Assembly: GCA_919902765.1 (NCBI GenBank)
Contig: CAKKRP010000043.1
Span: forward strand, 22,053 to 86,052
Length of the DNA: 64,000 nucleotides
Direction of reading: 5' to 3'
Origin: Gammaproteobacteria bacterium
Lineage (GTDB): Bacteria > Pseudomonadota > Gammaproteobacteria > S012-40
The notes under the pieces were generated by a model. That model saw only the letters and a program-made list of their open reading frames with translations. It ran no database searches and had not been told where the DNA came from. Below are positions 44,332-61,963 of the stretch, in pieces. The translations under genes and the position numbers were made by a program. The number at the start of each line of letters is the position of its first letter. The stretch's first letter is position 1.

Positions 44332-47300
44332 ATTTCCGTTCGTGTCCTTGCGAAGATCGCGATTTAGCCAGTCGACGAATTTGGCTAATCCTAGCGCAAT
44401 GTTTCAATCCACGCGCTCGCGAAGAGCGCGACGTGAGGATGGAATTTGCAGCACCCGTCGGTATCGTTTCAATCCACGCGCTCGCGAAGAGCGCGACGCA
44501 ACGGCTGCGGGATGAGGCCGTCGCTTTTTTAGTTTCAATCCACGCGCTCGCGAAGAGCGCGACGAATCCGGCGAGAGCATGGGCCAATACGATACGCGTT
44601 TCAATCCACGCGCTCGCGAAGAGCGCGACATATCAATGGCTGATTGGTCAAATTTGTTACGTACCGTTTCAATCCACGCGCTCGCGAAGAGCGCGACTCC
44701 AAACACGCGTGATGCTTCCGTGACTGCCTTGTTTCAATCCACGCGCTCGCGAAGAGCGCGACCCCGATAATCGGAAATCTCATACAACTCCTAGAGTTTC
44801 AATCCACGCGCTCGCGAAGAGCGCGACGGGGACACGTTCATTATTTGCGACACAATGGATCGGTTTCAATCCACGCGCTCGCGAAGAGCGCGACAAACAG
44901 CAGCACACGTTCACGCTAGTGATATTATGTTTCAATCCACGCGCTCGCGAAGAGCGCGACCGAAAAACGCCCGTAGATATTATTAACCGTCAAAACGTTT
45001 CAATCCACGCGCTCGCGAAGAGCGCGACACGTCGGGCAGTTTGGCTGCGCCGAATTTTGCGAGTTTCAATCCACGCGCTCGCGAAGAGCGCGACCTTGCC
45101 GTCCAGGGTTGTGTGCGCGCCCCTTGTGGTTTCAATCCACGCGCTCGCGAAGAGCGCGACGGATATCACCGGCATGAGTTGGTGCGCGGTGCTCAGTAAC
45201 GGTTTCAATCCACGCGCTCGCGAAGAGCGCGACTTTTGGGACAATGACATCTGGAGAGATGCTAAGAGTTTCAATCCACGCGCTCGCGAAGAGCGCGACA
45301 TCCCGGCTGGCCTGCCGATTTTCGCACCGACGACGTTTCAATCCACGCGCTCGCGAAGAGCGCGACTCGCCGTTGCGCGCCACCACGAGATATTCAAGAT
45401 GTTTCAATCCACGCGCTCGCGAAGAGCGCGACTTTTAAGCTAATCTTAATCGTGCCTTAAGGTTACTGTTTCAATCCACGCGCTCGCGAAGAGCGCGACG
45501 TGCCGTGAGAATGCCAGATTTCATAGGATCGAGGGTTTCAATCCACGCGCTCGCGAAGAGCGCGACGGATGACGTTTAAACCAATCCATGAGGAGTGATG
45601 CGTTTCAATCCACGCGCTCGCGAAGAGCGCGACACTCAAGGCACGCGCTGACAGCTTGACCACTAAGGTTTCAATCCACGCGCTCGCGAAGAGCGCGACT
45701 CGCCCAAGGTGCGTCTCCAATTCCTAATCGCTTGTTTCAATCCACGCGCTCGCGAAGAGCGCGACCGGCCTACTCGACGCCGCCGCCGCCATGTCTCGCG
45801 ACGTTTCAATCCACGCGCTCGCGAAGAGCGCGACACGGTCGAGATCACGCTCGACGCCACGCAGTTTCAGTTTCAATCCACGCGCTCGCGAAGAGCGCGA
45901 CGGAGCACAACCGCCGCGTGTGGCCCGCGCCGATTGTTTCAATCCACGCGCTCGCGAAGAGCGCGACATGCCTTCGACAAATGACGCCGCTTCGGGCGAC
46001 GCGTTTCAATCCACGCGCTCGCGAAGAGCGCGACGTGGCGGAATCATGCGATTCCGCTATGCGTTCGAGTTTCAATCCACGCGCTCGCGAAGAGCGCGAC
46101 TTTCCGAATATTTTAATCTAAATACCAATAGATTAGTTTCAATCCACGCGCTCGCGAAGAGCGCGACATCATTCGGCGGAGCCATGGTTGCAGGTTTAGC
46201 GCGTTTCAATCCACGCGCTCGCGAAGAGCGCGACAGATTGATGCGATTGTTTGGACTTGTCCACCATCGTTTCAATCCACGCGCTCGCGAAGAGCGCGAC
46301 AGATTGCGATTATCGCCTTCAATCCACGACATAAGTTTCAATCCACGCGCTCGCGAAGAGCGCGACAAAAAACGACCCGACTCCAACCTGTAGTAGCAGG
46401 TGTTTCAATCCACGCGCTCGCGAAGAGCGCGACGTCTATGCTTTTCCTCATATTTCAGTACCTGGATGTTTCAATCCACGCGCTCGCGAAGAGCGCGACG
46501 CCATCCGCGCCAATTTTACCAGTGGTGTAATTTGTTTCAATCCACGCGCTCGCGAAGAGCGCGACAACACCACTTTTGTCGCAGTGACAGAAACCACCTT
46601 GTTTCAATCCACGCGCTCGCGAAGAGCGCGACTCGTATTCCACGGTATACAACACTGCGTTATCATGTTTCAATCCACGCGCTCGCGAAGAGCGCGACGT
46701 ACGTCTCTGGCTACTGCTGGCGTCAGGATAGATGTTTCAATCCACGCGCTCGCGAAGAGCGCGACCGTCCGAGATTAGTTGGTCGCTAATCATTGACGGT
46801 GTTTCAATCCACGCGCTCGCGAAGAGCGCGACCCCGCCGTCCGTGAGTCGCCCGTCGTCCACGTACCGTTTCAATCCACGCGCTCGCGAAGAGCGCGACA
46901 TTCATACTCTACCTCACATCGTCGTTATTTTGCGTTTCAATCCACGCGCTCGCGAAGAGCGCGACAACGAGAAACAGAGTAGAGCGTGCTGTGGAACACG
47001 TTTCAATCCACGCGCTCGCGAAGAGCGCGACGCAAAGTGCGTCTAGCCTCGGGCGTTATGATGTGTTTCAATCCACGCGCTCGCGAAGAGCGCGACACGC
47101 GCGTGACTGGCGCAACATTTGCCCCGCCTGTTTCAATCCACGCGCTCGCGAAGAGCGCGACGGATTTTAATCTTATCACCGCGGTGGCGGCCGCCGTTTC
47201 AATCCACGCGCTCGCGAAGAGCGCGACTCCAGTTCGGCCTGGTGCAGCTTCAACCCGACGTCGTTTCAATCCACGCGCTCGCGAAGAGCGCGACATGATA

Positions 47301-50300
47301 TTTTAACGACTAGCGTGATGGTAAAAGTGTTTCAATCCACGCGCTCGCGAAGAGCGCGACGACGATTTCACGGAAGTTGCAATTATGTATAATAGTTTCA
47401 ATCCACGCGCTCGCGAAGAGCGCGACGCCCCATTTAATTTTGCCACCAGCGTCAAAGGTGGTTTCAATCCACGCGCTCGCGAAGAGCGCGACCGATCAAC
47501 GTCTTGGCGACCTGGAGGCGTTCATCGTTTCAATCCACGCGCTCGCGAAGAGCGCGACTTTGATGCACCTTAGCAATACCGGCGGCTACGATAGTTTCAA
47601 TCCACGCGCTCGCGAAGAGCGCGACGGAACTACATCGGAGAGATATAATGATCAAAATTGTTTCAATCCACGCGCTCGCGAAGAGCGCGACGTTTCAATC
47701 CACGCGCCCGCCACGGCGCGAACGCGTTTCAATCCACGCGCTCGCGAAGAGCGCGACATTATATTTCTATTGGCAATTGTTGCGCCAGTCTGTTTCAATC
47801 CACGCGCTCGCGAAGAGCGCGACCGGCTATCCGCGTCCACACTGGATCAGGATGGTGTTTCAATCCACGCGCTCGCGAAGAGCGCGACTGTTGATGGAGA
47901 GTGGGCAGAGTGTGGATATTTTGTTTCAATCCACGCGCTCGCGAAGAGCGCGACCCCTGTTTAGCGGCGAATTATCGCGTTTAAAATTGTTTCAATCCAC
48001 GCGCTCGCGAAGAGCGCGACGAGGATTTTGCGATTTTATTCCAATCAACAATGGTTTCAATCCACGCGCTCGCGAAGAGCGCGACTTACTACATCGGATT
48101 GAACCAGGCCGAACGCCCTGTTTCAATCCACGCGCTCGCGAAGAGCGCGACCAACGTTATCGATAAATATTTTCCGGACGGAATTGTTTCAATCCACGCG
48201 CTCGCGAAGAGCGCGACGTTAAATCCTGTAGTAATTACGCGCGCGGATCTCGTTTCAATCCACGCGCTCGCGAAGAGCGCGACAAAGGCAACTGCGAATT
48301 TGTCGGGCGTGAATGCGGTTTCAATCCACGCGCTCGCGAAGAGCGCGACCCGCCGTTTTTTTAAATTTTGTCCATTCTTCGACGTTTCAATCCACGCGCT
48401 CGCGAAGAGCGCGACCACGCGTCGCAACCGTCGCGTCGCTGACGTACTGGTTTCAATCCACGCGCTCGCGAAGAGCGCGACCGTCAACTAGCAATGACCC
48501 AATGTTGTCGGAGTTGTTTCAATCCACGCGCTCGCGAAGAGCGCGACAAATGCAATACAGTGATCGTAGTCAGGCTCACCTGTTTCAATCCACGCGCTCG
48601 CGAAGAGCGCGACATTTTAAACGCGGCGGGTGTGCCGGGCACAACCAGGTTTCAATCCACGCGCTCGCGAAGAGCGCGACTTTTAGACAAGGATCAATCA
48701 TGAGAACGTTAAACGTTTCAATCCACGCGCTCGCGAAGAGCGCGACATTTAAATGCCGAGAGGAAATGCAGAAGTCTATGTTTCAATCCACGCGCTCGCG
48801 AAGAGCGCGACGAGCTATCAAAAAAATTTAGCAGCTTGGATTAGTGTTTCAATCCACGCGCTCGCGAAGAGCGCGACGCCGCAAAATAAAATTCAGGGCC
48901 ACGGCTAAGCTGTTTCAATCCACGCGCTCGCGAAGAGCGCGACATAAAACGCGCGGGAATCAGATACAGCGTCGGAGGTTTCAATCCACGCGCTCGCGAA
49001 GAGCGCGACGGTCGCGTTTAGGGCTGACTCAAGCCTCTTTGGCCGTTTCAATCCACGCGCTCGCGAAGAGCGCGACTAGAGCTGCACCGTCCACATGTCG
49101 CAAAAATTCTGTTTCAATCCACGCGCTCGCGAAGAGCGCGACCACGATCGAGAGTTATTCCCAACTAAAATAAGAGTTTCAATCCACGCGCTCGCGAAGA
49201 GCGCGACCGCGTAGAACTAAAATATATGCGCCGAGATATCGACGTTTCAATCCACGCGCTCGCGAAGAGCGCGACAATACAAAAAAGACGCTATTGACTA
49301 TGCTATTTTTGTTTCAATCCACGCGCTCGCGAAGAGCGCGACATAATACCGATTCGGATTTATTCGATCTGGTTATAGTTTCAATCCACGCGCTCGCGAA
49401 GAGCGCGACCAACAACAGCCTTTGTTAAATCTCCAAGTATTCCGTTTCAATCCACGCGCTCGCGAAGAGCGCGACGTAAATTCGACTGGTTTTTTGTCGC
49501 AGACAGAATAGTTTCAATCCACGCGCTCGCGAAGAGCGCGACTTACGGGCGGCAATACCGCCGCCCGGTTAACCTAGGTTTCAATCCACGCGCTCGCGAA
49601 GAGCGCGACCGCCGACGTAGGTCGCGATTGCGGAAAAATCATTGTTTCAATCCACGCGCTCGCGAAGAGCGCGACGTTCCGCTACAGGTATGTATTTGCT
49701 CGATTTAATGTTTCAATCCACGCGCTCGCGAAGAGCGCGACGCAACGCGGTGGTCGCCATCGCCGCTATTAAATCGTTTCAATCCACGCGCTCGCGAAGA
49801 GCGCGACTAATTCAGATTGTGGCGATTTTGCCGGTTGAAGGGTTTCAATCCACGCGCTCGCGAAGAGCGCGACTCGCAAATCAGTAGCGCTCAGGTATAA
49901 AATACAGGTTTCAATCCACGCGCTCGCGAAGAGCGCGACCGCCCGTATCTCAAAACCTCATCTGTTTTAGCAGGGTTTCAATCCACGCGCTCGCGAAGAG
50001 CGCGACGTGTCGCCGTGCTCGATATAAGCGTGTCGTATCCCGTTTCAATCCACGCGCTCGCGAAGAGCGCGACGCCCGCACCGCGCGCAATGCCGAGGCC
50101 TGGGATAAAGTTTCAATCCACGCGCTCGCGAAGAGCGCGACACTCATGCGCCTCTGCGACCGCAGTGCGGTTGTCGTTTCAATCCACGCGCTCGCGAAGA
50201 GCGCGACACTACACGTTGGGCTTCACCAGTTGTCTCGCTATGTTTCAATCCACGCGCTCGCGAAGAGCGCGACGCTAAACGTGTTGCTCGCGGATTGCGT

Positions 50301-50869
50301 CAGGTTGTTTCAATCCACGCGCTCGCGAAGAGCGCGACGCGGCGGAAAATTTAAATCTCGCAACGACGGAATGTTTCAATCCACGCGCTCGCGAAGAGCG
50401 CGACAAGTGGGTATCGTCATACGGCCTGGCGGACGACGGTTTCAATCCACGCGCTCGCGAAGAGCGCGACTCTAAGTTAATCGAAATGTGCAATAGCGAA
50501 ATGTCGTTTCAATCCACGCGCTCGCGAAGAGCGCGACGTTGTTCCGTGCGCACATTGTCCCAGCGCGGAATGGTTTCAATCCACGCGCTCGCGAAGAGCG
50601 CGACATCTCAAAACTCACGGAATTATGCAGGCACCGACAGTTTCAATCCACGCGCTCGCGAAGAGCGCGACTAAGGGACACACCCGCAAATGGCCGCGCA
50701 AACGAGTTTCAATCCACGCGCTCGCGAAGAGCGCGACCATACGTCTGTATAACGCACGTGCTATCATTAGAGTTTCAATCCACGCGCTCGCGAAGAGCGC
50801 GACTATTTGAGGGAAAATCGCCGGTATCTTCTAAAACGTTTCAATCCACGCGCTCGCGAAGAGCGCGAC
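44332..50869 (-). CRISPR. Type I-C CRISPR array: 98 canonical 32-bp repeats plus one degenerate distal repeat, 97 spacers
   Basis: Repeat on the + strand is GTTTCAATCCACGCGCTCGCGAAGAGCGCGAC. The transcribed-strand form GTCGCGCTCTTCGCGAGCGCGTGGATTGAAAC matches the I-C consensus family GTCGCGCCCCGCACGGGCGCGTGGATTGAAAC. I counted every repeat start, 44401 … 50838. Spacers are 33-37 nt, apart from one of 41 nt. A degenerate repeat (21/32 identical, ATTTCCGTTCGTGTCCTTGCGAAGATCGCGAT) lies at 44332-44363, at the leader-distal end. The leader side abuts cas2. Confidence 0.97.
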
Positions 50870-51044
50870 TTCACAAGTCTAACTCATTGATTTTCACAGT
50901 GCTAGTGCCTTACTGCCGCTAACCTATATTTGAAAGTGATGCGTAGCGTTCTTCGCGCTTCATAGCGGTCTATTATGTATAAAAAACAAATAGTTAAATA
51001 CCCGCTAACCGGCCCTCAATTTGATGAGTACACATGATTAGCGC
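50870..51044 (-). promoter_or_regulatory. CRISPR leader (between cas2 stop and first/newest repeat)
   Basis: 175-bp non-coding, relatively AT-rich segment directly between cas2 (ends 51045) and the first repeat (50838-50869). The repeat orientation matches cas-operon transcription on the minus strand. Confidence 0.5.
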
Positions 51045-51344
51045 TTACAGAATTATTGCATCGCGGAACGGATCGGGTGAGGGCTTGGCGCCGATGTGTT
51101 CGACTTTTTGGCGGCCCTTTTTGCCTAAAAAATAGAAGCGGAGACTATCTTCCTTCGGATCGAACGTTTCCGTCAACAGATTTTTAAACACTGTGAATTG
51201 TGCAGGGTCAACTTCGCATTCAAAAACTGAGTTTTGTACACGCATGCCATAATCCAGGCAAATTTTCGCTATATTGCGCAGTCGGCGTTGCCCCGCTTTT
51301 GTTACGACGCTGACATCATACGTGACGAGTACCAGCATTGTCAT
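51045..51344 (-). CDS. cas2: CRISPR-associated endoribonuclease Cas2
   Basis: 99 aa, MTMLVLVTYDVSVVTKAGQRRLRNIAKICLDYGMRVQNSVFECEV… canonical Cas2; 4-nt overlap with cas1. Confidence 0.9.
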   Translation of the reverse strand: MTMLVLVTYDVSVVTKAGQRRLRNIAKICLDYGMRVQNSVFECEVDPAQFTVFKNLLTETFDPKEDSLRFYFLGKKGRQKVEHIGAKPSPDPFRDAIIL

Positions 51345-52381
51345 TTCACCAAATAGGGCGGATAGTATTCCGTGTCGCCGCGTATATGCCGCGCCAACAG
51401 CATGGCCTGGCAGTGTGGCAGCAAACCGATAGGCACTTGTTCTTCCAAATAGGGATGCATTATTTCCACTTGCTTGCGTTCTTGCCAGGCGGTCAACAAA
51501 CTTTTGCGAGCATCGTCTGTTAAGCGTACCGCACCGCTGGCTTCGGTGACAAAATCATTTGGTTTTACCTGCTGGCGATTGATGAGCGTTAATACAAAAC
51601 GGTCCGCCCATGGCGCGCGAAATTCCTCCAATAAATCCAGGGCAAGGCTTGAACGACCGGGCCTGTCTTGATGCAAGAATCCCACGTAGGGGTCGAGCCC
51701 CACACCTTGCAGCGCGGACGCACATTCATGCGTGATCAATGTGTACGCAAAGGAAAGCAATGCGTTGACAGGATCTGTCGGCGGCCTGCGCACCCGCCCG
51801 CCAAAGATAAATCCACTGCCTCGCAACAATTCATTAAACACTCCAAAATAAGTGCTTGCAGCGTCACCCTCTATGCCCATGGCCTCTGCCACCGTTTTGG
51901 CGTGACGGGCGCGGCGCAAGCTAGTTGCAAGCCGTTCAACCGCAGATGCAATCAAAGAGTTTTCGCCGTGATTTCGGATTTCGCGCAATAATACGGCGCG
52001 ACCATTGGCGATTTTTGCAGCGACCATCAAACGTGCAATGCCAACGGATTTTTCGTTATCATCGGCCCAGCGATATTGCGCGCGGCGCAGCAACACATTG
52101 CCGGTTTGTTTGCCCTGCACCCGCGCAAGAAACCGCCCGTATTCCGTATAAAAAGACAAACCAATCCCTTGTTCCCCACAGTAGCCCATCAAAAATGGAG
52201 ACACGGAAACTTGACCGAAGCAAAAAATATTGCCGACGGTGAGCGCGGGGAATTGCCCGAGCTTTTCGTCACCCTGTTTGTTGATGATGGTCTCGCGGTC
52301 TTTATGGAGGTAGCTTTCTTGGCGCGCAATATAGAGGGAGTTGAGAAGTTTTTTCATAGTGTCATTTTCAACCGGTGACAA
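51341..52381 (-). CDS. cas1: CRISPR-associated integrase Cas1 (type I-C)
   Basis: 346-aa ORF. Likely true start at Met 52357 (MKKLLNSLYIARQESYLHKD…, the typical I-C Cas1 N-terminus). Conserved …E…H…E acidic/His residues across the C-terminal domain. Confidence 0.9.
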   Translation of the reverse strand: MSPVENDTMKKLLNSLYIARQESYLHKDRETIINKQGDEKLGQFPALTVGNIFCFGQVSVSPFLMGYCGEQGIGLSFYTEYGRFLARVQGKQTGNVLLRRAQYRWADDNEKSVGIARLMVAAKIANGRAVLLREIRNHGENSLIASAVERLATSLRRARHAKTVAEAMGIEGDAASTYFGVFNELLRGSGFIFGGRVRRPPTDPVNALLSFAYTLITHECASALQGVGLDPYVGFLHQDRPGRSSLALDLLEEFRAPWADRFVLTLINRQQVKPNDFVTEASGAVRLTDDARKSLLTAWQERKQVEIMHPYLEEQVPIGLLPHCQAMLLARHIRGDTEYYPPYLVK

Positions 52382-52575
52382 TTTGTCACCGACTCGTTGC
52401 CTTCCTTGTCTAGCCCTTCTTTAAGCTTATTCCGGTATTTTCGAGCGGTTTGATAATCCGATTGCTGGGTCAACTCCTGCACGATGTCGATGACAGAGAA
52501 CCACCAGATTTCCTTGGTCTCATCATACACCCGCCTAATCTGATAGTCTTCAAACAGTGCCAAATCGGCTTTCAT
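52354..52575 (-). CDS. Small 73-aa ORF inserted between cas4 and cas1; possible Bro-N/KilA-N-like DNA-binding fold (uncertain)
   Basis: MKADLALFEDYQIRRVYDETKEIWWFSVIDIVQELTQQSDYQTARKYRNKLKEG… resembles the Bro-N pattern (F..g..iR.v.de.ge.WF.a.Dv...LG…). Its stop abuts the probable cas1 start, 32 nt after the cas4 stop. Not part of the canonical I-C gene set. Confidence 0.3.
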   Translation of the reverse strand: MKADLALFEDYQIRRVYDETKEIWWFSVIDIVQELTQQSDYQTARKYRNKLKEGLDKEGNESVTNCHRLKMTL

Positions 52576-52607
52576 AACACCTTCCTCGCTGATTGTTACG
52601 CGTTCGC

Positions 52608-53276
52608 CTATTCATTGGCATTGCGTTCCTCTTCACCCTCGTTTTCGGCATACATTGCTTCAACATATCGCCCAGAATGATCACGACGAAATATCTCCGG
52701 TTCACATAAATTGACCAATGAGCACGCGCGGCAGCGTTTGACCTCATCGGTAGGCGGCGGTGTTTTGCCCGATGCTAACAATGCATGCGCGCCTTCAATG
52801 GCCGCCACCGTAGTCGCTCGCAATGCATCGTCAATCATCACGGGTTCACGCCGTCGCACCTCCCAATACCAAATGGCGCCTTCGGTCACGCGGGTGTCGC
52901 GCATTTCTTCTATACACAAGGCTTGCGCGCACACTTGCACACGATCCCAATCTTCCACCTTCGGCTTGCCGCGTTTATATTCCACTGGGAAATAATGCAG
53001 CGGACTATTAGTCGCAGAATCGCCCGCCTCAATCTCCAGCAAATCCATTTTGCCGGTGAGTTGATATCGCTGCGAATTCAACATTACGCCGCGCTCATAC
53101 CGCGTGCCGCGCCGTTGTTCCGCCACGCCGGAATCTACCCGCTCGTGCAATAGATTGCCTTCGGCGGTGTATTGGTTGTCTGCCCACACCTGCTCAATAT
53201 GAATCAACGCAAACTGCCGGGGGCAGTAGGCGTAGTGTTGTAGGGCGGAGAGCACTATGAAATCAATCGTCTGCAT
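52608..53276 (-). CDS. cas4: CRISPR-associated exonuclease Cas4 (full length)
   Basis: 222 aa; N-terminal …ALQHYAYCPRQFAL…, RecB-nuclease core and C-terminal Cys cluster (…CRACSLVNLCEP…) = the four-Cys Fe-S motif of Cas4. Confidence 0.85.
   Translation of the reverse strand: MQTIDFIVLSALQHYAYCPRQFALIHIEQVWADNQYTAEGNLLHERVDSGVAEQRRGTRYERGVMLNSQRYQLTGKMDLLEIEAGDSATNSPLHYFPVEYKRGKPKVEDWDRVQVCAQALCIEEMRDTRVTEGAIWYWEVRRREPVMIDDALRATTVAAIEGAHALLASGKTPPPTDEVKRCRACSLVNLCEPEIFRRDHSGRYVEAMYAENEGEEERNANE
52883..53276. repeat. Direct repeat copy A (cas4 5' region) flanking the DUF433/DUF5615 insertion
   Basis: About 305 nt identical to 54018-54322 (TTCGGTCACGCGGGTGTCGCGCATTTC … GGTTGTCTGCCCA), then about 85 nt of about 88% identity, then complete divergence at the start codons. 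Confidence 0.85.
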
Positions 53277-53646
53277 GGCTTATCGGTCGTAGCAATGGAC
53301 GACTCCGTATCGTTTCACCGTTGAACACAATGAATTTTCCTAAATATGCGTCTGCGTCTCCTGCCAATTGCATCACCCATTGTGCCGGATCGCTGGGGCC
53401 ATAGGAATGTACCCGCAATAAAATAACGGCTGGCGGCGTGGGATGACCACGCACAAACACAAGTTCACCGTAATCCCGATCAAACGTCACCAGCCACCGT
53501 AGTTCGCGCGTCGCGCGCAATAATACCTCGCCATCGTCGATTCCCGGACAGGCTTCCGTGATGGAAACTACGTCATAACCGGCGACGCGGAGAAGCGTTA
53601 CCGACGGTGCCGGGAAATTTTCGTTAACCAATATCTTTACTGTCAT
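53263..53646 (-). CDS. DUF5615-family (Mut7-C/PIN-like RNase fold) protein; putative toxin of a DUF433/DUF5615 pair
   Basis: 127 aa, MTVKILVNENFPAPSVTLLRVAGYDVVSITE…DGEVLLRATRELRWLVTFDRDYGELVFVRGHPTPPAVILLRV… matches the DUF5615 family pattern (MkfLvDENLp…L…GHDv…EiL…a…R.LVT.DkDFgeLvf…vIlLRl). Overlaps the DUF433 gene by 4 nt and overlaps the cas4 start. Confidence 0.6.
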   Translation of the reverse strand: MTVKILVNENFPAPSVTLLRVAGYDVVSITEACPGIDDGEVLLRATRELRWLVTFDRDYGELVFVRGHPTPPAVILLRVHSYGPSDPAQWVMQLAGDADAYLGKFIVFNGETIRSRPLLRPISHADD

Positions 53647-53891
53647 GAATTGACCTTGCCCACGGCTGCAAACGTTTCTTCCTTAAACAACTCGGCTGCG
53701 AATGCGATAGCCGCCAACACATCATCCCGCGAAAGATGTGGATAAGCCGCAAGGATTGTTTCCATCGTCCATCCATCCGCCAATCGGTCGAGAATCAACT
53801 CGACTGAAATGCGCGTGCCTTTGATCACAGGTTTACCGACTAGAATGTTCGCGTTTACTTCGATGTGGTTTTTCCATTGCATATTCAACAC
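53643..53891 (-). CDS. DUF433-family protein; putative antitoxin partner of DUF5615
   Basis: 82 aa, …ILVGKPVIKGTRISVELILDRLADGWTMETILAAYPHLSRDDVLAAIAFAAE… matches the DUF433 signature (GKPvIrGTRI.V..IL..LA.G.s.eEIl.dYP.Lt.eDI.AAL.yAa). Confidence 0.65.
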   Translation of the reverse strand: MLNMQWKNHIEVNANILVGKPVIKGTRISVELILDRLADGWTMETILAAYPHLSRDDVLAAIAFAAELFKEETFAAVGKVNS

Positions 53892-53991
53892 TTCCTCGGA
53901 AGGGTGAGTTATGGGATAAATAAGACTCTATGGTCGCTAAATTTCACGTCTTTACTATTTACGGTAACGGCAACGCTATCCAACGGAAAAT

Positions 53992-54411
53992 TTATAGTGA
54001 GCGTTCGCCCCTACGGCCTTCGGTCACGCGGGTGTCGCGCATTTCTTCTATACACAAGGCTTGCGCGCACACTTGCACACGATCCCAATCTTCCACCTTC
54101 GGCTTGCCGCGTTTATATTCCACTGGGAAATAATGCAGCGGACTATTAGTCGCAGAATCGCCCGCCTCAATCTCCAGCAAATCCATTTTGCCGGTGAGTT
54201 GATATCGCTGCGAATTCAACATTACGCCGCGCTCATACCGCGTGCCGCGCCGTTGTTCCGCCACGCCGGAATCTACCCGCTCGTGCAATAGATTGCCTTC
54301 GGCGGTGTATTGGTTGTCTGCCCATGCCTGTTCTACGTGTATCAACGCAAACTGCCGGGTGCAGTAGGCGTAGTGTTGTAGGGCGGAGATGGCTACGTAG
54401 TCGGCCTCCAT
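53992..54411 (-). pseudogene. Truncated cas4 duplicate (N-terminal 130 aa of Cas4 with divergent first about 30 codons and an unrelated 7-aa tail)
   Basis: MEADYVAISALQHYAYCTRQFALIHVEQAWADNQY…TRVTEGRRGERSL*. Identical to Cas4 residues about 32-133 at the nucleotide level and lacks the C-terminal nuclease/Cys-cluster half. Its start codon lies 6 nt after the cas7 stop, the native cas7-cas4 junction. Confidence 0.65.
54018..54411. repeat. Direct repeat copy B (cas4 5' region) flanking the DUF433/DUF5615 insertion
   Basis: See copy A; perfect identity over about 305 nt, divergent toward the start codon. Confidence 0.85.
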
Positions 54412-54416
54412 GGGGA

Positions 54417-55295
54417 CTAAAAGCCGTCAATTTCCTCTGCAACTAATCCTTTTAACTCCTTTAGCATGTAGCTACCATCTGGATTCACAGTTAGTGAGTT
54501 ATGCACCTTTGCTGACGAGTATTGACCAGGTTTGGAGTTGTGCTTCCACCAAATTACCTTACTGACCGCCATAGAACCTTCAGGTCGTGCGGAAGAAGCA
54601 TCACCTTCAAATAACTTTGGCAATATCTCTTTAATAGTAAGAGCATCTTTGTCGCTAAATCCGGTACGATCTGCGAGCTGGGGCGTCATCGCGCCAAACG
54701 CCACATAGAACGCCTTATCGACACGATGTTTCATACCCATCGTATCTGAACCTTTTTTACTACCATCGCCTTCACCACTCACACTTTTGGTGATTTGTGT
54801 ACTGGTAATACTGATAGGCTCAACACTAAAAGCAGATTGAATAGTTACTGGCCCACGAATAGCAATAGAAATACCATTTGCACTTTCATCCTCCTTCCGT
54901 TCTTCCGAGTTCTTTTTCTTCGTTTTGGCATCACCTTTAAAGGCAAATAGCTGTCCAAATGCTCGAACATCGAACCACGTATTACAGGCTTGTTTTGCGG
55001 CATCTTCTGGTTTGGCGTTCTTGCTATTTAGCGCACCTTTTCCCAATACAGATTCCGCTCTTGCTTTCAGACTCATCATGCCATCTGTTTTTTTTTCATC
55101 CGATTGAACAAAAATAGCTTGTCCAACACTTTGTAAACGATCACGCAATTTTCGCTTTAAACAAACATCGGTCACCTCACCAAAGCCGTCGTAGTCCGTA
55201 CGTGGCCGATTACCGTTTAAGGGATCGCCATTCGGGTTAGCATTCTTAACATTAAAAATTATTGCAAAATCAATTTTGTTTGTGAGCGTAGCCAT
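54417..55295 (-). CDS. cas7: Type I-C Cas7 (Csd2)
   Basis: 292 aa, MATLTNKIDFAIIFNVKNANPNGDPLNGNRPRTD… with the NPNGDP motif characteristic of Csd2/Cas7 of types I-C/I-B. Confidence 0.9.
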   Translation of the reverse strand: MATLTNKIDFAIIFNVKNANPNGDPLNGNRPRTDYDGFGEVTDVCLKRKLRDRLQSVGQAIFVQSDEKKTDGMMSLKARAESVLGKGALNSKNAKPEDAAKQACNTWFDVRAFGQLFAFKGDAKTKKKNSEERKEDESANGISIAIRGPVTIQSAFSVEPISITSTQITKSVSGEGDGSKKGSDTMGMKHRVDKAFYVAFGAMTPQLADRTGFSDKDALTIKEILPKLFEGDASSARPEGSMAVSKVIWWKHNSKPGQYSSAKVHNSLTVNPDGSYMLKELKGLVAEEIDGF

Positions 55296-57409
55296 TATTC
55301 ATCTCCTTCATGGGTTTCAGTTTCAGTTTCAGTATCAGTATCATCTTCGGTACTATCCTTTAGAATCCACTGACCCTCTTTCAACTTGTGCTCTCTAAGC
55401 CATTTTCGTTGGCAGTGAAATCCCAAAAGATACTCTCCTGTCAGCTTCTCATTAGAATTGAAATCTTTAATTTCAATAATCTCATGTACATCCTCAAGCA
55501 AACGTTTATAGGCTGCTTCCAGTGGTGGTATTTTACTTTTTAATCGTTGCTGATATGGAATAATTCCATTATGAATTGTCAACCAAGTAGCGGCTGGATA
55601 ATCAGAAAATCGCTGCATCAACCGATTCGCTGTCGTTGATCTATTTTCCTTGGCTATTCTGAGTGCCATTTCTTCAATGTGATCAGCAATAGCAAGTAAA
55701 CGACCATATAAATAGTCTCGCGAGTGATAAGAAGTTTCTAAAGCCATAGCATAATTTCTCCTTTTTGATAAATCTGGATGACGATTAAAAAATCCACGGT
55801 ACAATGCGCAGGCCACTCCCAAATCTTTCTCCCAAGCGGCTAATTCACTAGCCGTATTAGAATACTGACCTGAGAATCGCTTGACATTTCTGTTACTGAC
55901 ACGACGCACACAGGAATTGACAATGTCTATAGGAAACGCACGTTCCTCAATAATGCAAGGAAGTAATCGTTCTATCGTTGCGGATAATAATTTTTTCTTC
56001 TTATCATCTTCAACGGCCTTTCCAAATGCGGCTAAAACGATGTTTTTAGGTGCAGGCGCACTAACAGGCCAGATCGTCTTTGATATTGGCTTTTTACCAT
56101 CCGGTTGAGGCATATCAATGATATGACGTTGCTGCCAAGAAAAATCGAGATGCCAGCGCTCTAAACGATCTATAAATTCCTTCGCAAAACATTCACGATA
56201 GTAGGTAATACCCACACGCCCAGATGTTGCCGAGTCAATCGCCATAATCACGATACTTTCCATATCGCCTAACTCAGCACGATAGCCTGCCATCTTTTTA
56301 TTGAGCTTTAGTGCAAAAGATTGACCTAGGTCACGACCATGGTCAATATTGGCGGTGAGCTCTTCTACCTTCTCAGATGAATCAATCTCGTCAAGATCGT
56401 CCCAATCAAATAAGGTGTATGAGTCAGTCATGGGCTCAGGAATGGGCTTTCCTGAAACAGCCCAAGAAACAATTACCTGTTTGCCATTTTCATGGCCTTG
56501 CCTTCGAATTAACCATTTTAGAGCATTATGGCTTTTCTGTGTCGCTAACAAACCCACTCCAACAGCTTGTAGACCATCGCATTTGACACTGGCCTTTGTA
56601 TCGGTGAATCGACCAAGGAATGTATAACCTTCCATATCATTCGAAGAAATAAGCTTCGCATTGCCCGCAGCCCTAATGATTTTCGATGGATGATTTGATG
56701 CCAAAATGGTTTGCTTCCCCGTTACAAAACACAACCCTTCTACCCCGTCACTCAATGCATCAAAAGATGCCCAACTATCTTGTATAGATGTATCTAGCCA
56801 TGTATCACTAACAGGATCGCCTTCGATATACACAGACCAACAGACTAAAGCAGTTCCTTGATCAAAGGTCTTTGTTTCAATATCTTTTGAAATTGAATTA
56901 AATATCAATGGTTCAACATCAGACTTTAATTCATCTGCTGACTTAGGTGTTAGCAAACAACCATTATCATCCACAAATAGAATTTTCGCTTTAACTAAAT
57001 CTTCGATAACATTACCATTTTCAACATATTTCAATACAGCTTTCGCTTTTAGATGACCAAGTTGTGAGTCGCACCAACTTTTTAACAGAGTATGATATGC
57101 CTCAAAAAACGAAGGTTTCTTTCCGCCAAACTTTGGACTGTAGTCTTTGGCTACATATTGGAGCTTGTCTGCAAGTGGATGTGGTGGAGGTCGTTTTCCT
57201 GTACGCCCTGCTGATTTTTCAGTTGCAGGCAGAATTATTGGCGTTTTAGTCAGGACTTTTGCACTGATAAATTTTCCATTAATATCTATAGCTATATTGA
57301 TATTCGCATTCTGCTTGGAATGGCTTAATGGGATTAATTGTTGATCGTCTGGCAAGTTAAGTGATATTGCTTGTTCATAGGTTTCATATAGTTTCGCCAT
57401 CCAACTCAT
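55295..57409 (-). CDS. cas8c: Type I-C Cas8c (Csd1) large subunit
   Basis: 704 aa between cas5 and cas7 with 4-nt/1-nt operonic overlaps; size and position are those of Csd1. Acidic C-terminal tail. Confidence 0.8.
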   Translation of the reverse strand: MSWMAKLYETYEQAISLNLPDDQQLIPLSHSKQNANINIAIDINGKFISAKVLTKTPIILPATEKSAGRTGKRPPPHPLADKLQYVAKDYSPKFGGKKPSFFEAYHTLLKSWCDSQLGHLKAKAVLKYVENGNVIEDLVKAKILFVDDNGCLLTPKSADELKSDVEPLIFNSISKDIETKTFDQGTALVCWSVYIEGDPVSDTWLDTSIQDSWASFDALSDGVEGLCFVTGKQTILASNHPSKIIRAAGNAKLISSNDMEGYTFLGRFTDTKASVKCDGLQAVGVGLLATQKSHNALKWLIRRQGHENGKQVIVSWAVSGKPIPEPMTDSYTLFDWDDLDEIDSSEKVEELTANIDHGRDLGQSFALKLNKKMAGYRAELGDMESIVIMAIDSATSGRVGITYYRECFAKEFIDRLERWHLDFSWQQRHIIDMPQPDGKKPISKTIWPVSAPAPKNIVLAAFGKAVEDDKKKKLLSATIERLLPCIIEERAFPIDIVNSCVRRVSNRNVKRFSGQYSNTASELAAWEKDLGVACALYRGFFNRHPDLSKRRNYAMALETSYHSRDYLYGRLLAIADHIEEMALRIAKENRSTTANRLMQRFSDYPAATWLTIHNGIIPYQQRLKSKIPPLEAAYKRLLEDVHEIIEIKDFNSNEKLTGEYLLGFHCQRKWLREHKLKEGQWILKDSTEDDTDTETETETHEGDE

Positions 57410-58110
57410 AGTTGCGCCTCCTCTGTATCGACCGCTACTAGGTTTTCACCCTCAGCAAAAAATTTACCTATCATCGGCCGCACGAAACGACGTACTTTGC
57501 AGGCACTAGGATGCGGAAACTCCAATACACCGCGTTTCATCGTGGCGTACCAAAAGCGGCTATGTAACTCATTAATACCAGTTTCATCGGGATAATCAAA
57601 ACCGTGAAACATTAAACCAAAACCTAACTCATCAATCGCATCGTATGCGCCTTTTCCCCCGCCAAACTCACATGGCTCCACGTAAGCTTGACAGTCGCGT
57701 GTACCCAAGAAAATATCCTGGCGACCGCCTTTTTCCAGCATACGGGTAGCAATACTAAAATGCTTACCATCAACCCGATCTTTGGCAAGCTCTGGTCTAT
57801 GTTCATTCCATTCAAAATGGGCTTCGACCTGATATTCCACCTCATGCAAAAAAGTATAAATAGCCAGGCTGTTACCTCCGTTCCACACCAAAGGTTTGGT
57901 GCCCTTCGTTTGGGTGCGCAATGGTGCCATAACACGCACTTTATCGACATACCAAATTATCGTTGGCTTCCAGTAAATGGATTTGAGCACGCCTTTTATT
58001 GCCTCGTAAGTTGGCACATGGTAAGAACATTTTTCGCCTCCTATTTTAGTAATAGGATCGGTGAATAACGCATACCGACCCCATAGTCTAAAGCTAATAC
58101 TATTTTTCAT
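57406..58110 (-). CDS. cas5: Type I-C Cas5 (Cas5d, pre-crRNA endonuclease)
   Basis: 234 aa, MKNSISFRLWGRYALFTDPITKIGGEKCSYHVPTYEAIKGVLKSIYWKP… canonical Cas5d N-terminus. Confidence 0.85.
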   Translation of the reverse strand: MKNSISFRLWGRYALFTDPITKIGGEKCSYHVPTYEAIKGVLKSIYWKPTIIWYVDKVRVMAPLRTQTKGTKPLVWNGGNSLAIYTFLHEVEYQVEAHFEWNEHRPELAKDRVDGKHFSIATRMLEKGGRQDIFLGTRDCQAYVEPCEFGGGKGAYDAIDELGFGLMFHGFDYPDETGINELHSRFWYATMKRGVLEFPHPSACKVRRFVRPMIGKFFAEGENLVAVDTEEAQL

Positions 58111-58122
58111 CTCTGCTTCTCC

Positions 58123-60573
58123 TCAACAGATATTGCTGCTTAGCTTGCCTACCGGTTCGGTTGATAGACCAAAATCATCGCTGTAATAACGCTCATCCAA
58201 GAAATAGACGCCTTCTCCTTGAATTTCATATAGGGCATTTTCATCTTTAAGCGCATTCCATACATTTGGAAATATGTTTACACTATACTTTTGCGCTTTC
58301 CTGAGCAAAGCGTAATAGCGGTGGGCGTCAAACTCTTTCGCAATAGCGCATAGTTCAGTAACTAAGTGCTTGCCGTCACCATACTGAACAATAACCGAAT
58401 GCGTGGGTGCGTCTATGGCTTTAAACGCGTTGCCAGCAGTCATGAAAGATTGTTGAAGCAAAGGTAGTTTTGGAAAGCGATATTGATATGCCGGGTTAAA
58501 TTGGTTGCCACAGAGCAGATTAAGCAGCGAGTCGTTGCGAGATGCTTGCTTGGCGGATAGCGGATAATCCATTTCATTAGCTCGATCATAAAAGTAGTAT
58601 TGGAAATACCGCTTAATTTTTTCTGGCGCGAGTAAATCACCGTCTTGTAGTTCACTGAACACCCTCAATGTTTTTTCTTGTCCGACTTTAATGTCTTTGA
58701 GCAAGTCGATATTTTCCGTTATTGGGTTTATTACATAGACGGTCGCGGTCGGTAGATTTCCGCTACGATTGCAGCGCCCAGCAGCTTGAGCTATTGAATC
58801 GAGGCCTGCAAGAAAACGAATGACACTGGCAAAGTCGATATCAACTCCAGCCTCAATTAGTTGGGTGCTTATGCACAATACCGGCAACTGTTGGTATAAT
58901 CTTTCGCGTATTTTATCGAGCAAATGTTTTCGATGCGCTGGACACTGGTTTGTACTTAAATGAAATAGCGCGTCTTCGGGAATTTCAAACTGACAAAGTA
59001 AATATAAGCACTGTGCCCATGCCTTGGTATTTACTATGACCAAGCAGCTATTTTTTATCGTGAACTCACTTATCGCTAGCGCAACGATTTCTTCTTCCGT
59101 CCAACCATCAGTCTTAATGTTATTAATGATATTTACACGTTTTAGATCTTTAAATAGCTGGCCTACATCTCCAATGATTTCATTTTCTTTCGAGATAAAC
59201 AACTGACCTTTGTTAGGTACCCTTAGTTCGTCAAGCAATGGCTGTGTGGCCGTGCAAAGTACAGTGGTTGTTTTCGCGTATTCAGTCAAAAAATTGATGG
59301 CGTTACAAAATATGTGCGTACAATTGATGGGTAAGGTTTGTATCTCGTCAAAAATTAGTACACTGTTGGCGAGTTGGTGCAATCGCCTGACGCCGCGAGT
59401 GCCCCCACTAAATAAAGTTTCTAATAACTGAACCATAGTAGTTAGTATGATAGGGGAATCCCAGTTGTCGGATACTAGCTTGTTGTGCCAAGTTTGGTTT
59501 TCTGGATCAAGATTGGAATGGTGTTCCAAAACCCAAGGGAACTCGTCGCTCTTGTCTTCGATTACCTTGCGAATCGCATCCGCATTTTGTTCGATAATCG
59601 AGGTATACGGGATGATATAGATAATTCGATCAAGTTTATGGAAATATGCGTGATGTAGGGCGAAGCGTAAGCTGGCGTAAGTTTTACCCCCGCCTGTAGG
59701 TACTGTTAACGTATAAATGCCTTGTTTTTTCTTCGCGTTGGCGTAGCAACTGTCCGAAATATCACGTCGGATATGATCTATAGGAGTACTACTTGCAAGA
59801 TTAAGCAAACTGTCTTCTAACCGCTCAATAGCTACTGACCAGGGTACCGTTTTCCTATTGCGGACATATGCATTTTCAGGAGTTTCAAAGTCTGCGCTAT
59901 TAATGCGATCTGCGTCAATTAGACAACTAAATAGAAAACGGGAAAAAAAACCGAGATAGAAAGCATGAATATTGTCGCTAATATTTTGGCCGTGTTGTTC
60001 GGTGCGCAGTATATTTTTTATTATTTCTATCATTTGAGTTATTAGTTTTTTCCCAGCGAGTTGGCCTGCCATCGTAAGCACAGCGTCATTCGCGTTCTCC
60101 ATGCATTCTGTAAAATTGGTTTTATTATCTGCTTTTTTCATTCTCTCGATAAAGCCATTTCCACCTTCAGGCTTTAAGCAATCGATTATCCCACTATGGT
60201 GAGAGGCGATGCACAACGCGAGAATCTGTCCGCAAAGTTCCCCTTGGCCGTTCTTGCCATATTGTCTTAGATTGTTCCATACCCATTGTGCGCCAGCGCT
60301 TGAGTGATCAATTTTACCTTTTAGTTCTTTCGCGTCTACGTAGTTATCATCAATGTCGGGATTTAGTTTGCCTGTCGCGGATTCAATGTAATCCTGGAAT
60401 GCTCGACTATATTTACCAAAGTCATGCATGAGGCCGAGGAGTTGACCGGCGTCATACAAACCTATCTTGGCAGTTAGAGAGGCGGTAAGACTTGAAACCC
60501 CAAATAAATGCTGCTCAAGTGTTTGTTCTTTCTTGTCAGTAGTCCGTATGTGGGCAACATAGCTTTTTTTCAT
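58123..60573 (-). CDS. cas3: Cas3 HD nuclease/helicase
   Basis: 816 aa; N-terminal HD domain (…LGLMHDFGKYS…), helicase motif I (TVPTGGGKT), motif II (LIFDEIQ), C-terminal domain. Confidence 0.9.
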   Translation of the reverse strand: MKKSYVAHIRTTDKKEQTLEQHLFGVSSLTASLTAKIGLYDAGQLLGLMHDFGKYSRAFQDYIESATGKLNPDIDDNYVDAKELKGKIDHSSAGAQWVWNNLRQYGKNGQGELCGQILALCIASHHSGIIDCLKPEGGNGFIERMKKADNKTNFTECMENANDAVLTMAGQLAGKKLITQMIEIIKNILRTEQHGQNISDNIHAFYLGFFSRFLFSCLIDADRINSADFETPENAYVRNRKTVPWSVAIERLEDSLLNLASSTPIDHIRRDISDSCYANAKKKQGIYTLTVPTGGGKTYASLRFALHHAYFHKLDRIIYIIPYTSIIEQNADAIRKVIEDKSDEFPWVLEHHSNLDPENQTWHNKLVSDNWDSPIILTTMVQLLETLFSGGTRGVRRLHQLANSVLIFDEIQTLPINCTHIFCNAINFLTEYAKTTTVLCTATQPLLDELRVPNKGQLFISKENEIIGDVGQLFKDLKRVNIINNIKTDGWTEEEIVALAISEFTIKNSCLVIVNTKAWAQCLYLLCQFEIPEDALFHLSTNQCPAHRKHLLDKIRERLYQQLPVLCISTQLIEAGVDIDFASVIRFLAGLDSIAQAAGRCNRSGNLPTATVYVINPITENIDLLKDIKVGQEKTLRVFSELQDGDLLAPEKIKRYFQYYFYDRANEMDYPLSAKQASRNDSLLNLLCGNQFNPAYQYRFPKLPLLQQSFMTAGNAFKAIDAPTHSVIVQYGDGKHLVTELCAIAKEFDAHRYYALLRKAQKYSVNIFPNVWNALKDENALYEIQGEGVYFLDERYYSDDFGLSTEPVGKLSSNIC

Positions 60574-60638
60574 AACCAGTAATTTTCCGATATACGTGAA
60601 CCCAATTTCGCATGATATGAATGTAGTCCCAGATCACG

Positions 60639-60819
60639 CCGATTTTTGTAACTATTCAGCATGTGACCCTCCCCCTTTGTAAAAGGGGGATAGAGGGGGA
60701 TTTAATCCCTCTGCGCACTGATTTTATCGAGAAAAGTGGCAGCAAATCCCCCCTCGCCCCCCTTTTTCAAAGGGGGGACACTCAATATCGAGTATGTGCT
60801 GAATAGTTACCGATTTTTT
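60639..60819. mobile_element. MITE-like element (about 163 bp) with terminal inverted repeats and 8-9-bp target-site duplication, in the cas3 upstream region
   Basis: TIRs GTAACTATTCAGCA…(60648-60661) / …TGCTGAATAGTTAC (60797-60810). They are flanked by direct repeats CCGATTTTT (60639-60647) and (C)CGATTTTT (60810/60811-60818). The interior is G/C-hairpin rich (CCCCCTTTgtAAAAGGGGG; GAGGGGGATTTAATCCCTC; CCCCCCTTTTTCAAAGGGGGG). Confidence 0.5.
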
Positions 60820-61222
60820 TCAAAGATAGAATTTCCCTACGCTATCCACAAGAGGCCGCGAAGTCCAATATTATGTCAATGAGATACTCCAACGCCACCC
60901 CCCCAACCAATATTAGTCTTTCCAAACAACAATGCCAAGCCCATGTTAGGAGCATTTATACATATCCTGTGAACACGCTTCCGCCCTTCCCCACACCACT
61001 CGCTTGGAGAAACCTGGATATTTAGAAACGCAACATATCACAAAATGCCGCGCTGTTAGCGCGCGGATATAAAATGTAGAGTGAGTCTAATCGGAGGAAT
61101 CGAGAGGCGTGTTAATAATAAAACTATTGCCGTACGCTGATTGGCGGGCTGCGCAAAAAACGCAACCCACCGAATATAACTCAGCAATTCATTAACTTAT
61201 TACACTGGGGTGTGAGAGGCGC

Positions 61223-61963
61223 TTACAACAACGGAATCGTCATTTCCAATAAATGTCGCACGTCTTCCATGCCGACTTTTAAATTGCTTTCGATTTGTTC
61301 CATTGTTAATGCTTGGTCGCCCCGCCCCGCCCCCATGTTGGCGATGACCGCGCATGTCGCATAACAAAGCGCTAATTCGCGCGCCAAGGCGGCTTCGGGC
61401 ATGCCTGTCATCCCTACGATATCGCAACCGTCGCGTTCCAGCCGGTTGATTTCAGCGGCGGTTTCCAAGCGTGGCCCTTGCGTCGCGGCGTAGATTCCGC
61501 GCGGTGCGGTATTCAAACCCAATTGACCGCTTGCTTGCAACAAGACTTGACGTAACTCTTCGCAATACGGTGTCGTGAAATCGATATGCACCACTTGTTT
61601 TAAACTGTCTTCAAAAAACGTGGTGCCGCGTCCCCAGGTGTAATCGATAATTTGATCGGGGACGACCAAACGGCCCGGGGTCAGATCCGCGTGTATGCCA
61701 CCGACGGCGGCGACCGCAATCACTTTTTTTACGCCTACTTCTTTTAACGCATAGACATTCGCGCGATAATTTATTTTGTGCGGCGGTATCGTATGGCCGG
61801 GCCCGTGACGCGGCAAGAACACCACTTGTTTATCCGCCAGCGAACCATAAACCAACGGCCCGGACGGCTCGCCATACGGTGTATGCACGACTTCACGCCG
61901 TAATATTTTCAAATTGTGCAACGACGTGAGCCCTGTCCCGCCGATAATCGCGATTTCAGCCAT
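61223..61963 (-). CDS. mtnP: S-methyl-5'-thioadenosine phosphorylase (purine nucleoside phosphorylase family)
   Basis: MAEIAIIGGTGL…VVFLPRHGPGHTIPPHKINYRANVYALKEVGV…; 246 aa, MTAP-type signature. Confidence 0.85.
   Translation of the reverse strand: MAEIAIIGGTGLTSLHNLKILRREVVHTPYGEPSGPLVYGSLADKQVVFLPRHGPGHTIPPHKINYRANVYALKEVGVKKVIAVAAVGGIHADLTPGRLVVPDQIIDYTWGRGTTFFEDSLKQVVHIDFTTPYCEELRQVLLQASGQLGLNTAPRGIYAATQGPRLETAAEINRLERDGCDIVGMTGMPEAALARELALCYATCAVIANMGAGRGDQALTMEQIESNLKVGMEDVRHLLEMTIPLL

Follow-up and report, generated by a model that had tools for sequence, protein, structure and literature searches.

Why should two small genes of the toxin–antitoxin (TA) kind lie inside the operon of a CRISPR–Cas system, next to a broken copy of one of its own genes? 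The question is raised by a stretch of 64,000 nucleotides (nt) of contig CAKKRP010000043.1 (assembly GCA_919902765.1, Gammaproteobacteria bacterium), called the window below. Between 44.4 and 60.6 kb its minus strand carries a type I-C CRISPR–Cas locus with all core genes intact, in the order cas3-cas5-cas8c-cas7-cas4′-DUF433-DUF5615-cas4-Bro-N remnant-cas1-cas2-array, where cas4′ is a truncated cas4. All coordinates given are those of the window, and all features described within it are on the minus strand, where every gene listed in an earlier annotation from the letters alone (the original prediction) was located. The DUF433/DUF5615 pair has the layout of a type II TA module and stands where the interference genes give way to the adaptation genes, and we consider it probable that it is spread by recombination and serves for addiction or as a safeguard. 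Support is good for the structural and evolutionary part of this account; the role as a safeguard is inferred by reasoning.

Descending from cas7, the first gene of the pair (53643..53882) encodes a putative antitoxin of the DUF433/COG2442 family, which matches PF04255 over the full length of the model (1.9e-23) and gives a weak match to a DUF433 structure (PDB 2GA1). Its start is the ATG that gives 79 amino acids (aa), not an upstream GTG, as judged from the alignment of homologs and from the gene call on a second contig, L001 (loci collected in the analysis carry numbers prefixed by L). The gene had been foreseen in the original prediction, at a length of 82 aa that did not hold. The second gene (53263..53646) encodes a putative PIN-like toxin of 127 aa that matches PF18480 (DUF5615; 6.9e-21), and its homologs are annotated ‘DUF5615 family PIN-like protein’ in the source records. 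Both family assignments had been proposed beforehand and are upheld by the Pfam search. The stop codon of DUF433 overlaps the start of DUF5615 by 4 nt (ATGA), while the DUF5615 stop falls 14 nt inside the open reading frame (ORF) of the full-length cas4, whose ATG precedes the end of that stop codon by 14 nt. Two small, adjacent and co-oriented genes, with the antitoxin first and an overlapping junction, form the layout of a type II TA pair, and from these overlaps the pair is predicted to be translationally embedded in the cas operon and coupled to cas4, in agreement with what had been proposed.

The DUF5615 residues N8, E9, N10, D25, E31 and D38 and the segment T54–L62 are conserved in at least 92% of sequences, D38 and T54–L62 being invariant in the alignment, and the conserved residues are identical between cas-embedded and free-standing copies. 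The AlphaFold2 model of the protein has a pLDDT of 90. In both genes non-synonymous differences (pN) are far below synonymous ones (pS), with dN/dS of ~0.07–0.13 (dS being partly saturated), and the pair is under purifying selection.

The arrangement is found well beyond the window. A search for the toxin in GTDB species-representative genomes, one genome per species, returned 80 loci at 43–68% identity, 67 of which had enough flanking DNA to be classified by local tblastn with the window Cas proteins. The pair lies inside a type I-C operon in 23 of these 67 loci and is co-oriented with the cas genes in all of them. It is directly upstream of cas4 in 22 of the 23, with cas7 just upstream in most, the sole exception being L082, where it stands between cas4 and cas1. 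The carriers belong to the Nitrospinota and to the Alpha-, Beta- and Gammaproteobacteria, and include the isolate Thiocapsa sp. KS1 (L018); the same cas7-pair-cas4 order occurs in the metagenomic loci L002, L003, L170, L173 and L175. The toxin stop overlaps the cas4 start or comes within ~10 nt of it in most of the 19 loci inspected, several of which have the 14-nt overlap of the window. Longer gaps separate the two genes in five loci, four of ~17–40 nt and that of L012 of ~340 nt. When the sequences before DUF433 are compared among type I-C loci, similarity is confined to ~20 nt around the ribosome-binding site, and a conserved element at this position was rejected. The pair is a recurrent component of type I-C operons and not a one-off insertion.

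The original prediction had taken the pair for an unusual, unique insertion brought in by a mobile element. Neither half is supported: the same slot is filled in ~23 type I-C loci of other species, the search found no phage relatives of the pair, and the only plasmid relatives are distant Leptospira homologs at 30–33% identity, for which reasons a plasmid or phage carrier was rejected. Moreover, a related locus (L169, described below) already has the spacer, the pair and the same type of cas4 start. Had the arrangement been an ancestral feature of the subtype, related genomes should have shown it and kept no intact cas7–cas4 junction anywhere; the same arrangement is indeed present elsewhere, but intact junctions without cargo persist in L085 and L086.

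What sets the window apart is the cas4 fragment. The full-length cas4 (52608..53276) encodes 222 aa that match the Pfam model at 7.3e-26 and TIGR00372 at 3.3e-42, and its product is 82–86% identical to the Cas4 proteins of L086 and L169. Upstream of the pair, cas4′ (53992..54411, 139 aa) matches only positions 3–100 of the 160 in the Pfam Cas_Cas4 model (7.7e-11). It consists of 132 Cas4 codons followed by seven foreign read-through codons and a stop, and has neither the C-terminal Cys cluster nor the CRACSLVNLC segment of the full copy, so that the nuclease domain is incomplete. It is probably a pseudogene or a recombination scar. The two cas4 sequences share a direct repeat, with the upstream copy A in cas4′ (54016..54389) and the downstream copy B inside the full cas4 (52878..53251). 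Over the 374 nt aligned there are eight mismatches, all of them within the 5′ 74 nt (54316–54389), and the 3′ 300 nt are 100% identical (54016–54315 = 52878–53177). The starts of the two copies are dissimilar over 8–9 codons only (24–27 nt, with a 3-nt indel). The mosaic pattern described in the original prediction was therefore found, whereas the unrelated stretch at the start, put there at about 30 codons, is much shorter. From the end of the repeat a unique spacer of 133 nt (53883..54015) leads to the DUF433 ATG. It has a homologous counterpart ahead of DUF433 in L169 and matches no collected locus save L001 and L169, and none of its six frames gives a coding signal. No cas4 fragment was found upstream of the pair in any of the 19 loci inspected, and the fragment is a new element in the window lineage, most likely a recombination scar.

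The relationships of the cas genes and of the pair point in different directions. All window cas genes are closest to those of L086 and L087, both of which lack the pair, with aa identities of 59–63% for cas3, 79% for cas5, 51% for cas8c, 71–72% for cas7, 80–82% for cas4, 86% for cas1 and 79–80% for cas2. The closest relatives of the pair are instead those of L169 (87% for DUF433 and 80% for DUF5615), L003 (84 and 75%) and L002 (80 and 70%), and the window Cas4 shares only 47% identity with its counterparts in L002 and L003. Over 18 loci the similarity of the pair is uncorrelated with that of Cas7, Cas4 or Cas2 (Spearman ~0); co-evolution of the pair with these genes was rejected, and the lack of correlation fits an exchange of cassettes among type I-C loci. 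L173 has a Cas7 74% identical to that of the window, followed 19 nt later by the pair without a cas4 fragment.

L169 is the most informative relative. It is 80% identical to the window over the whole 1311 nt comprising spacer, both genes of the pair and cas4, and its Cas4 is the closest found (86% identity). Its cas4 begins METIDSIM and has the 14-nt toxin overlap of the window. Since it holds the spacer, the pair and a cas4 start of the copy B type, these three were together before the lineages split. Position 1 of the L169 contig corresponds to window position 54008, 7 nt from the end of the cas4 repeat, either by chance or because the assembly broke at a similar repeat.

The two cas4 5′ ends come from different alleles, as originally proposed. 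Copy B has a start of the type M-x-T-I/L-D with the 14-nt toxin overlap, as do the pair-linked cas4 genes of L002, L003 and L169. Copy A begins MEADYVAISALQHY, a start of the ‘..AISALQHY’ type that is found in the Cas4 proteins P0136 and P0138 of another subclade. Simple tandem duplication does not explain these different starts and is disfavoured, again in line with the original view. The motifs ‘IHVEQAW’ and ‘IHIEQVW’ were rejected as markers of linkage to the cassette; both are common in the clade and are not diagnostic. The simplest reading of the sequences is that the fragment arose by recombination between two cas4 alleles. Recombination that uses the conserved 5′ end of cas4 as its anchor would carry the cassette from one type I-C locus to another. 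In this case the partners of the exchange would be an allele without the cassette, in which an A-type start follows cas7 directly, and an allele with the cassette and a B-type start. The crossover would lie near cas4 nt ~96, in the conserved region encoding SALQHYAYCPRQFALIH, and an illegitimate join would have fused cas4 nt 396 with the spacer, at a point 133 nt before DUF433. Together these steps would duplicate cas4 nt 97–396, leaving a 132-codon cas4 pseudogene and identical repeats of 300 nt. The zero divergence of these repeats, against 11% just upstream, indicates that the event is recent or that gene conversion continues.

The junction that holds the pair accepts other cargo as well. 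Among 80 metagenomic loci fetched for Cas4 homologs at 75–86% identity, the cas7–cas4 junction could be scored in 60. It is tight in 33 of them (a gap of up to ~60 nt, usually ~3 nt), contains a RhuM gene or fragment in 14, another type II TA pair in 11, and something else in two. Five further TA types were recognized there from Pfam matches: RHH with ParE, MazE/AbrB with PIN, DUF4258 with an MqsA-like protein, HTH_37 with ParE, and Unstab_antitox with ParE. All of these pairs are co-oriented with cas4 (L121, L123, L125–L128, L131, L133, L155, L162 and L164). RhuM (PADLOC PDC-S05) or fragments of it precede cas4 in L084, L087–L089, L094, L101, L105, L108, L110, L119 and L167, the RhuM genes running directly into cas4, the start of which they overlap, and a KilA-N gene stands in front of cas4 in L177. 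A 29-aa ORF after cas7 in L084 was considered as a second cas4 scar and rejected, being an N-terminal fragment of RhuM.

The junction between cas4 and cas1 is either tight in related loci or occupied by a Bro-N gene matching the PADLOC candidate PDC-S13, full-length versions of which encode 192–300 aa. The window has an N-terminal remnant of such a gene at this point (ORF73, 52354..52575, 73 aa; PDC-S13, 4.3e-21), with 65–81% aa identity to the 5′ ends of the Bro-N genes of its relatives in the same position, and its stop overlaps the cas1 ATG (ATGA). In L003 the segment 7002–7568, between cas4 and cas1, encodes DUF6883 and DUF4926 proteins in addition to the DUF433/DUF5615 pair before cas4, so that cas4 is flanked by two small gene pairs. 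A different gene order is seen in L100, L119, L147, L176 and L177, which are type I-C-like with cas3 placed after cas7 (cas5-cas8-cas7-cas3-cargo-cas4-...). Their Cas4 proteins are nevertheless 77–81% identical to that of the window, which points to a shuffling of effector modules against adaptation modules.

How might such a pair serve the locus? It would be transcribed together with the cas genes, and a labile antitoxin would need continuous synthesis. Deletion of the cassette, for instance via the 300-nt repeats with restoration of a plain cas7–cas4 junction, or a shut-off of the operon would then free the toxin and halt growth, and the cas locus would be stabilized by a putative addiction or safeguard module. 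The presence of unrelated toxin families in the same slot suits a property common to TA modules in general (addiction or safeguarding, perhaps abortive infection) better than an enzymatic role peculiar to DUF5615.

The pair can be set beside known systems. PIN-COG2442 is a predicted class of type II TA systems (Makarova 2009, PMC2701414), and in the VapBC10 pair (ssr2962/slr1767) of Synechocystis PCC 6803 VapC10 arrests growth, VapB10 neutralizes it and ClpXP2 degrades VapB10 (Ning 2013, PMC3834315). The window pair resembles VapBC10 in having a small COG2442/DUF433 gene followed by a PIN-like gene, bicistronic and antitoxin first. It differs in that it has no evident operon of its own, lying inside the cas operon and overlapping cas4; its toxin belongs to PF18480 and is likened to VapC10 as a PIN-like protein. 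In CreTA an RNA toxin is held in check by a CRISPR-repeat-like RNA antitoxin that needs Cascade (reviewed in PMC12737573). The window resembles CreTA and CrePA in that a TA element lies in a cas locus and is proposed to render the cell dependent on keeping or expressing it, whereas both parts of the window pair are proteins with no evident link to Cascade activity, so that the proposed analogy is one of outcome and not of mechanism. The best ungapped match to the CRISPR repeat in 50901–61300 was 18/32, equal to that of shuffled controls; because no repeat-like RNA (CreA) element above chance is present, membership of the CreTA group was rejected. The presence of the pair in this slot in many other bacteria suggests that it may help to retain the CRISPR locus.

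Several points weigh against this reading. Position 8 of DUF5615, the first acidic site expected in a PIN domain, is Asn in 94% of the clade. Toxicity of DUF5615, lability of the antitoxin and co-transcription of the pair are predictions from sequence, and the recurrence could reflect merely a permissive insertion site and not selection for a safeguard. An exact repeat of 300 nt is hard for short-read assemblers, and there may be heterogeneity in the population. Finally, the donor allele and the exact steps of recombination are not recoverable from the sequences, the L169 contig ending 7 nt short of the junction.

The main rival to a safeguard role is that the pair is a neutral or selfish hitch-hiker that serves its own persistence only, the cas7–cas4 junction being a permissive landing spot. 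Many unrelated cargoes share this junction (RhuM, KilA-N and several TA families), with Bro-N or DUF6883 and DUF4926 at the next one, about half of the related loci have no cargo at all, and the similarity of the pair is uncorrelated with that of the Cas proteins; a general tendency of TA genes to lie near defence genes is also on record (PMC3632139, PMC4963859). Against it, all of the cargo is co-oriented and the toxin gene and cas4 adjoin closely in most loci, strong purifying selection acts on both genes, and the same pair family occupies this exact junction in at least 23 genomes at species level. Recurrence and conservation argue only weakly here because a small selfish module may itself be conserved. 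We regard the hitch-hiker as somewhat unlikely, though a serious competitor.

The safeguard idea can also be widened to the junction as a whole. The cas7–cas4 junction would then be a dedicated docking site for interchangeable ‘guard’ cassettes (at least six TA families, with RhuM, KilA-N and Bro-N as single-gene candidates), swapped via the conserved 5′ end of cas4 and halting growth upon deletion or silencing of the cas operon or its inhibition by an anti-CRISPR, as a protein counterpart of CreTA and CrePA. In this wide form we hold the proposal to be doubtful.

A role in adaptation itself is improbable. The antitoxin might drive a stress-responsive internal promoter for cas4-cas1-cas2, or DUF5615 might take part in the processing of prespacers or RNA; the pair is always directly upstream of cas4 (of cas1 in L082) and apparently coupled to it in translation, VapB10 binds and activates its own promoter (PMC3834315), and the 133-nt spacer before DUF433 in the window and L169 is AT-rich (40% GC over 53883–53991 in the window). 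However, DUF433 follows cas7 by only 17–19 nt in L002 and L173, which leaves no room for a separate promoter. In the window the spacer has no sigma-70 match of at least 9/12, and an internal promoter in it was rejected; counts of such matches across the region equal those of shuffled controls, and neither a promoter nor a terminator consensus emerged from a scan of the sequence that separates the pair from its neighbours. The biochemically unrelated toxins in the same slot (ParE, DUF4258 and classic PIN) speak against a specific role of the DUF5615 enzyme.

An error of assembly, or the joining of two strains (cas7-cas4 and cas7-pair-cas4) via the 300-nt stretch, is a very improbable source of the duplicated cas4 segment. 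In its favour, the exact repeat is longer than the usual k-mers, the contig comes from a metagenome-assembled genome and an alternative graph path (a canonical locus plus a 1138-bp circle) can be built from the same sequences. Yet the same path with the same gene order is found in two assemblies, the 87-kb NCBI contig and the separate 5.5-kb ENA contig L001 (three single-nucleotide differences in 5513 nt), and the junction of cas4 nt 396 with the spacer is unique sequence, which no shared k-mer could generate and neither hypothetical parent would be expected to contain, so that repeat-induced misassembly is unlikely.

The safeguard module, our preferred reading, thus concerns components that are ordinary in themselves; their fixed and recurrent position within the operon and the lineage-specific cas4 scar appear to be undescribed. 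The nearest precedent is a PIN gene (Ava_4168) with a COG2442 gene (Ava_4167), listed among ‘genes loosely associated with CASS’ (Makarova et al. 2006, PMC1462988, Table 3). The same two families are near cas genes there, but in a loose neighbourhood in one cyanobacterium, compared with a fixed cas7–cas4 slot in many lineages here. A 2025 review of the coupling of TA and CRISPR systems (CreTA, CreR and CrePA) makes no mention of a protein pair inside type I-C operons, and the arrangement is not described in the passages searched of the 2025 CRISPR classification and earlier reviews. Literature searches on DUF5615, on DUF433 with CRISPR, on RhuM with cas4 and on TA genes inside type I-C operons did not find it either, nor did the name ‘DUF5615’ occur in the literature searched.

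If cells do depend on an intact and expressed cas operon in this way, the safeguard idea put forward for CreTA would extend from rare RNA modules to ordinary protein TA systems, and in one of the most common CRISPR subtypes, which would help to explain the persistence of costly CRISPR loci; a natural site of cassette exchange would lie where the interference module meets the adaptation module. Such dependence is directly testable in cultured carriers, Thiocapsa sp. KS1 among them. Even if the pair is neutral, a recurrent slot matters for the annotation and engineering of type I-C systems.

The remainder of the locus is that of a standard type I-C system. The operon starts with cas3 (58123..60573, 816 aa), an ORF with 63% aa identity to cas3 of L086; Pfam HD, DEAD and Cas3-like_C matches were found in its relatives. 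It continues with cas5c (57406..58110; an ORF with 79% aa identity to Cas5d of L086), the signature gene cas8c/csd1 (55295..57409; NCBIfam TIGR01863 cas_Csd1, 4.9e-93) and cas7 (54417..55295; Pfam Cas_Cas7, 2.9e-70). Beyond the two cas4 copies, the pair and the Bro-N remnant it passes into cas1 (51341..52357; Pfam Cas_Cas1, 3.3e-106), with 338 aa from the ATG at 52357, the length also called in L001, and then into cas2 (51045..51344; Pfam CRISPR_Cas2, 3.5e-25). The adjacent array (44401..50869) has its leader towards cas2 and is very long, with 98 exact 32-nt repeats and 97 spacers of 33–41 nt, mostly of 34–35 nt and one of 41 nt; no degenerate repeats were detected in it. The presence of cas8c/csd1, cas5c, cas7 and cas3 together with cas4-cas1-cas2 and an array assigns the locus to subtype I-C. 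There is no cas6 in the operon, and the list of window ORFs gives no further operon gene. The order is like that of canonical subtype I-C (Dvulg), cas3-cas5-cas8c-cas7-cas4-cas1-cas2 with an array and without cas6, from which the window differs by the added cas4 pseudogene, the TA pair between cas7 and cas4 and the Bro-N remnant between cas4 and cas1.

Within this one operon (51045–60573) the GC content rises from 0.40–0.45 in cas3 to cas7 to 0.52–0.55 in cas4 and cas1. A recent swap of effector and adaptation modules was considered from this step and rejected, the window cas genes all being closest to L086 and L087. The step is a property of the lineage, because the same one is present in the related locus L086.

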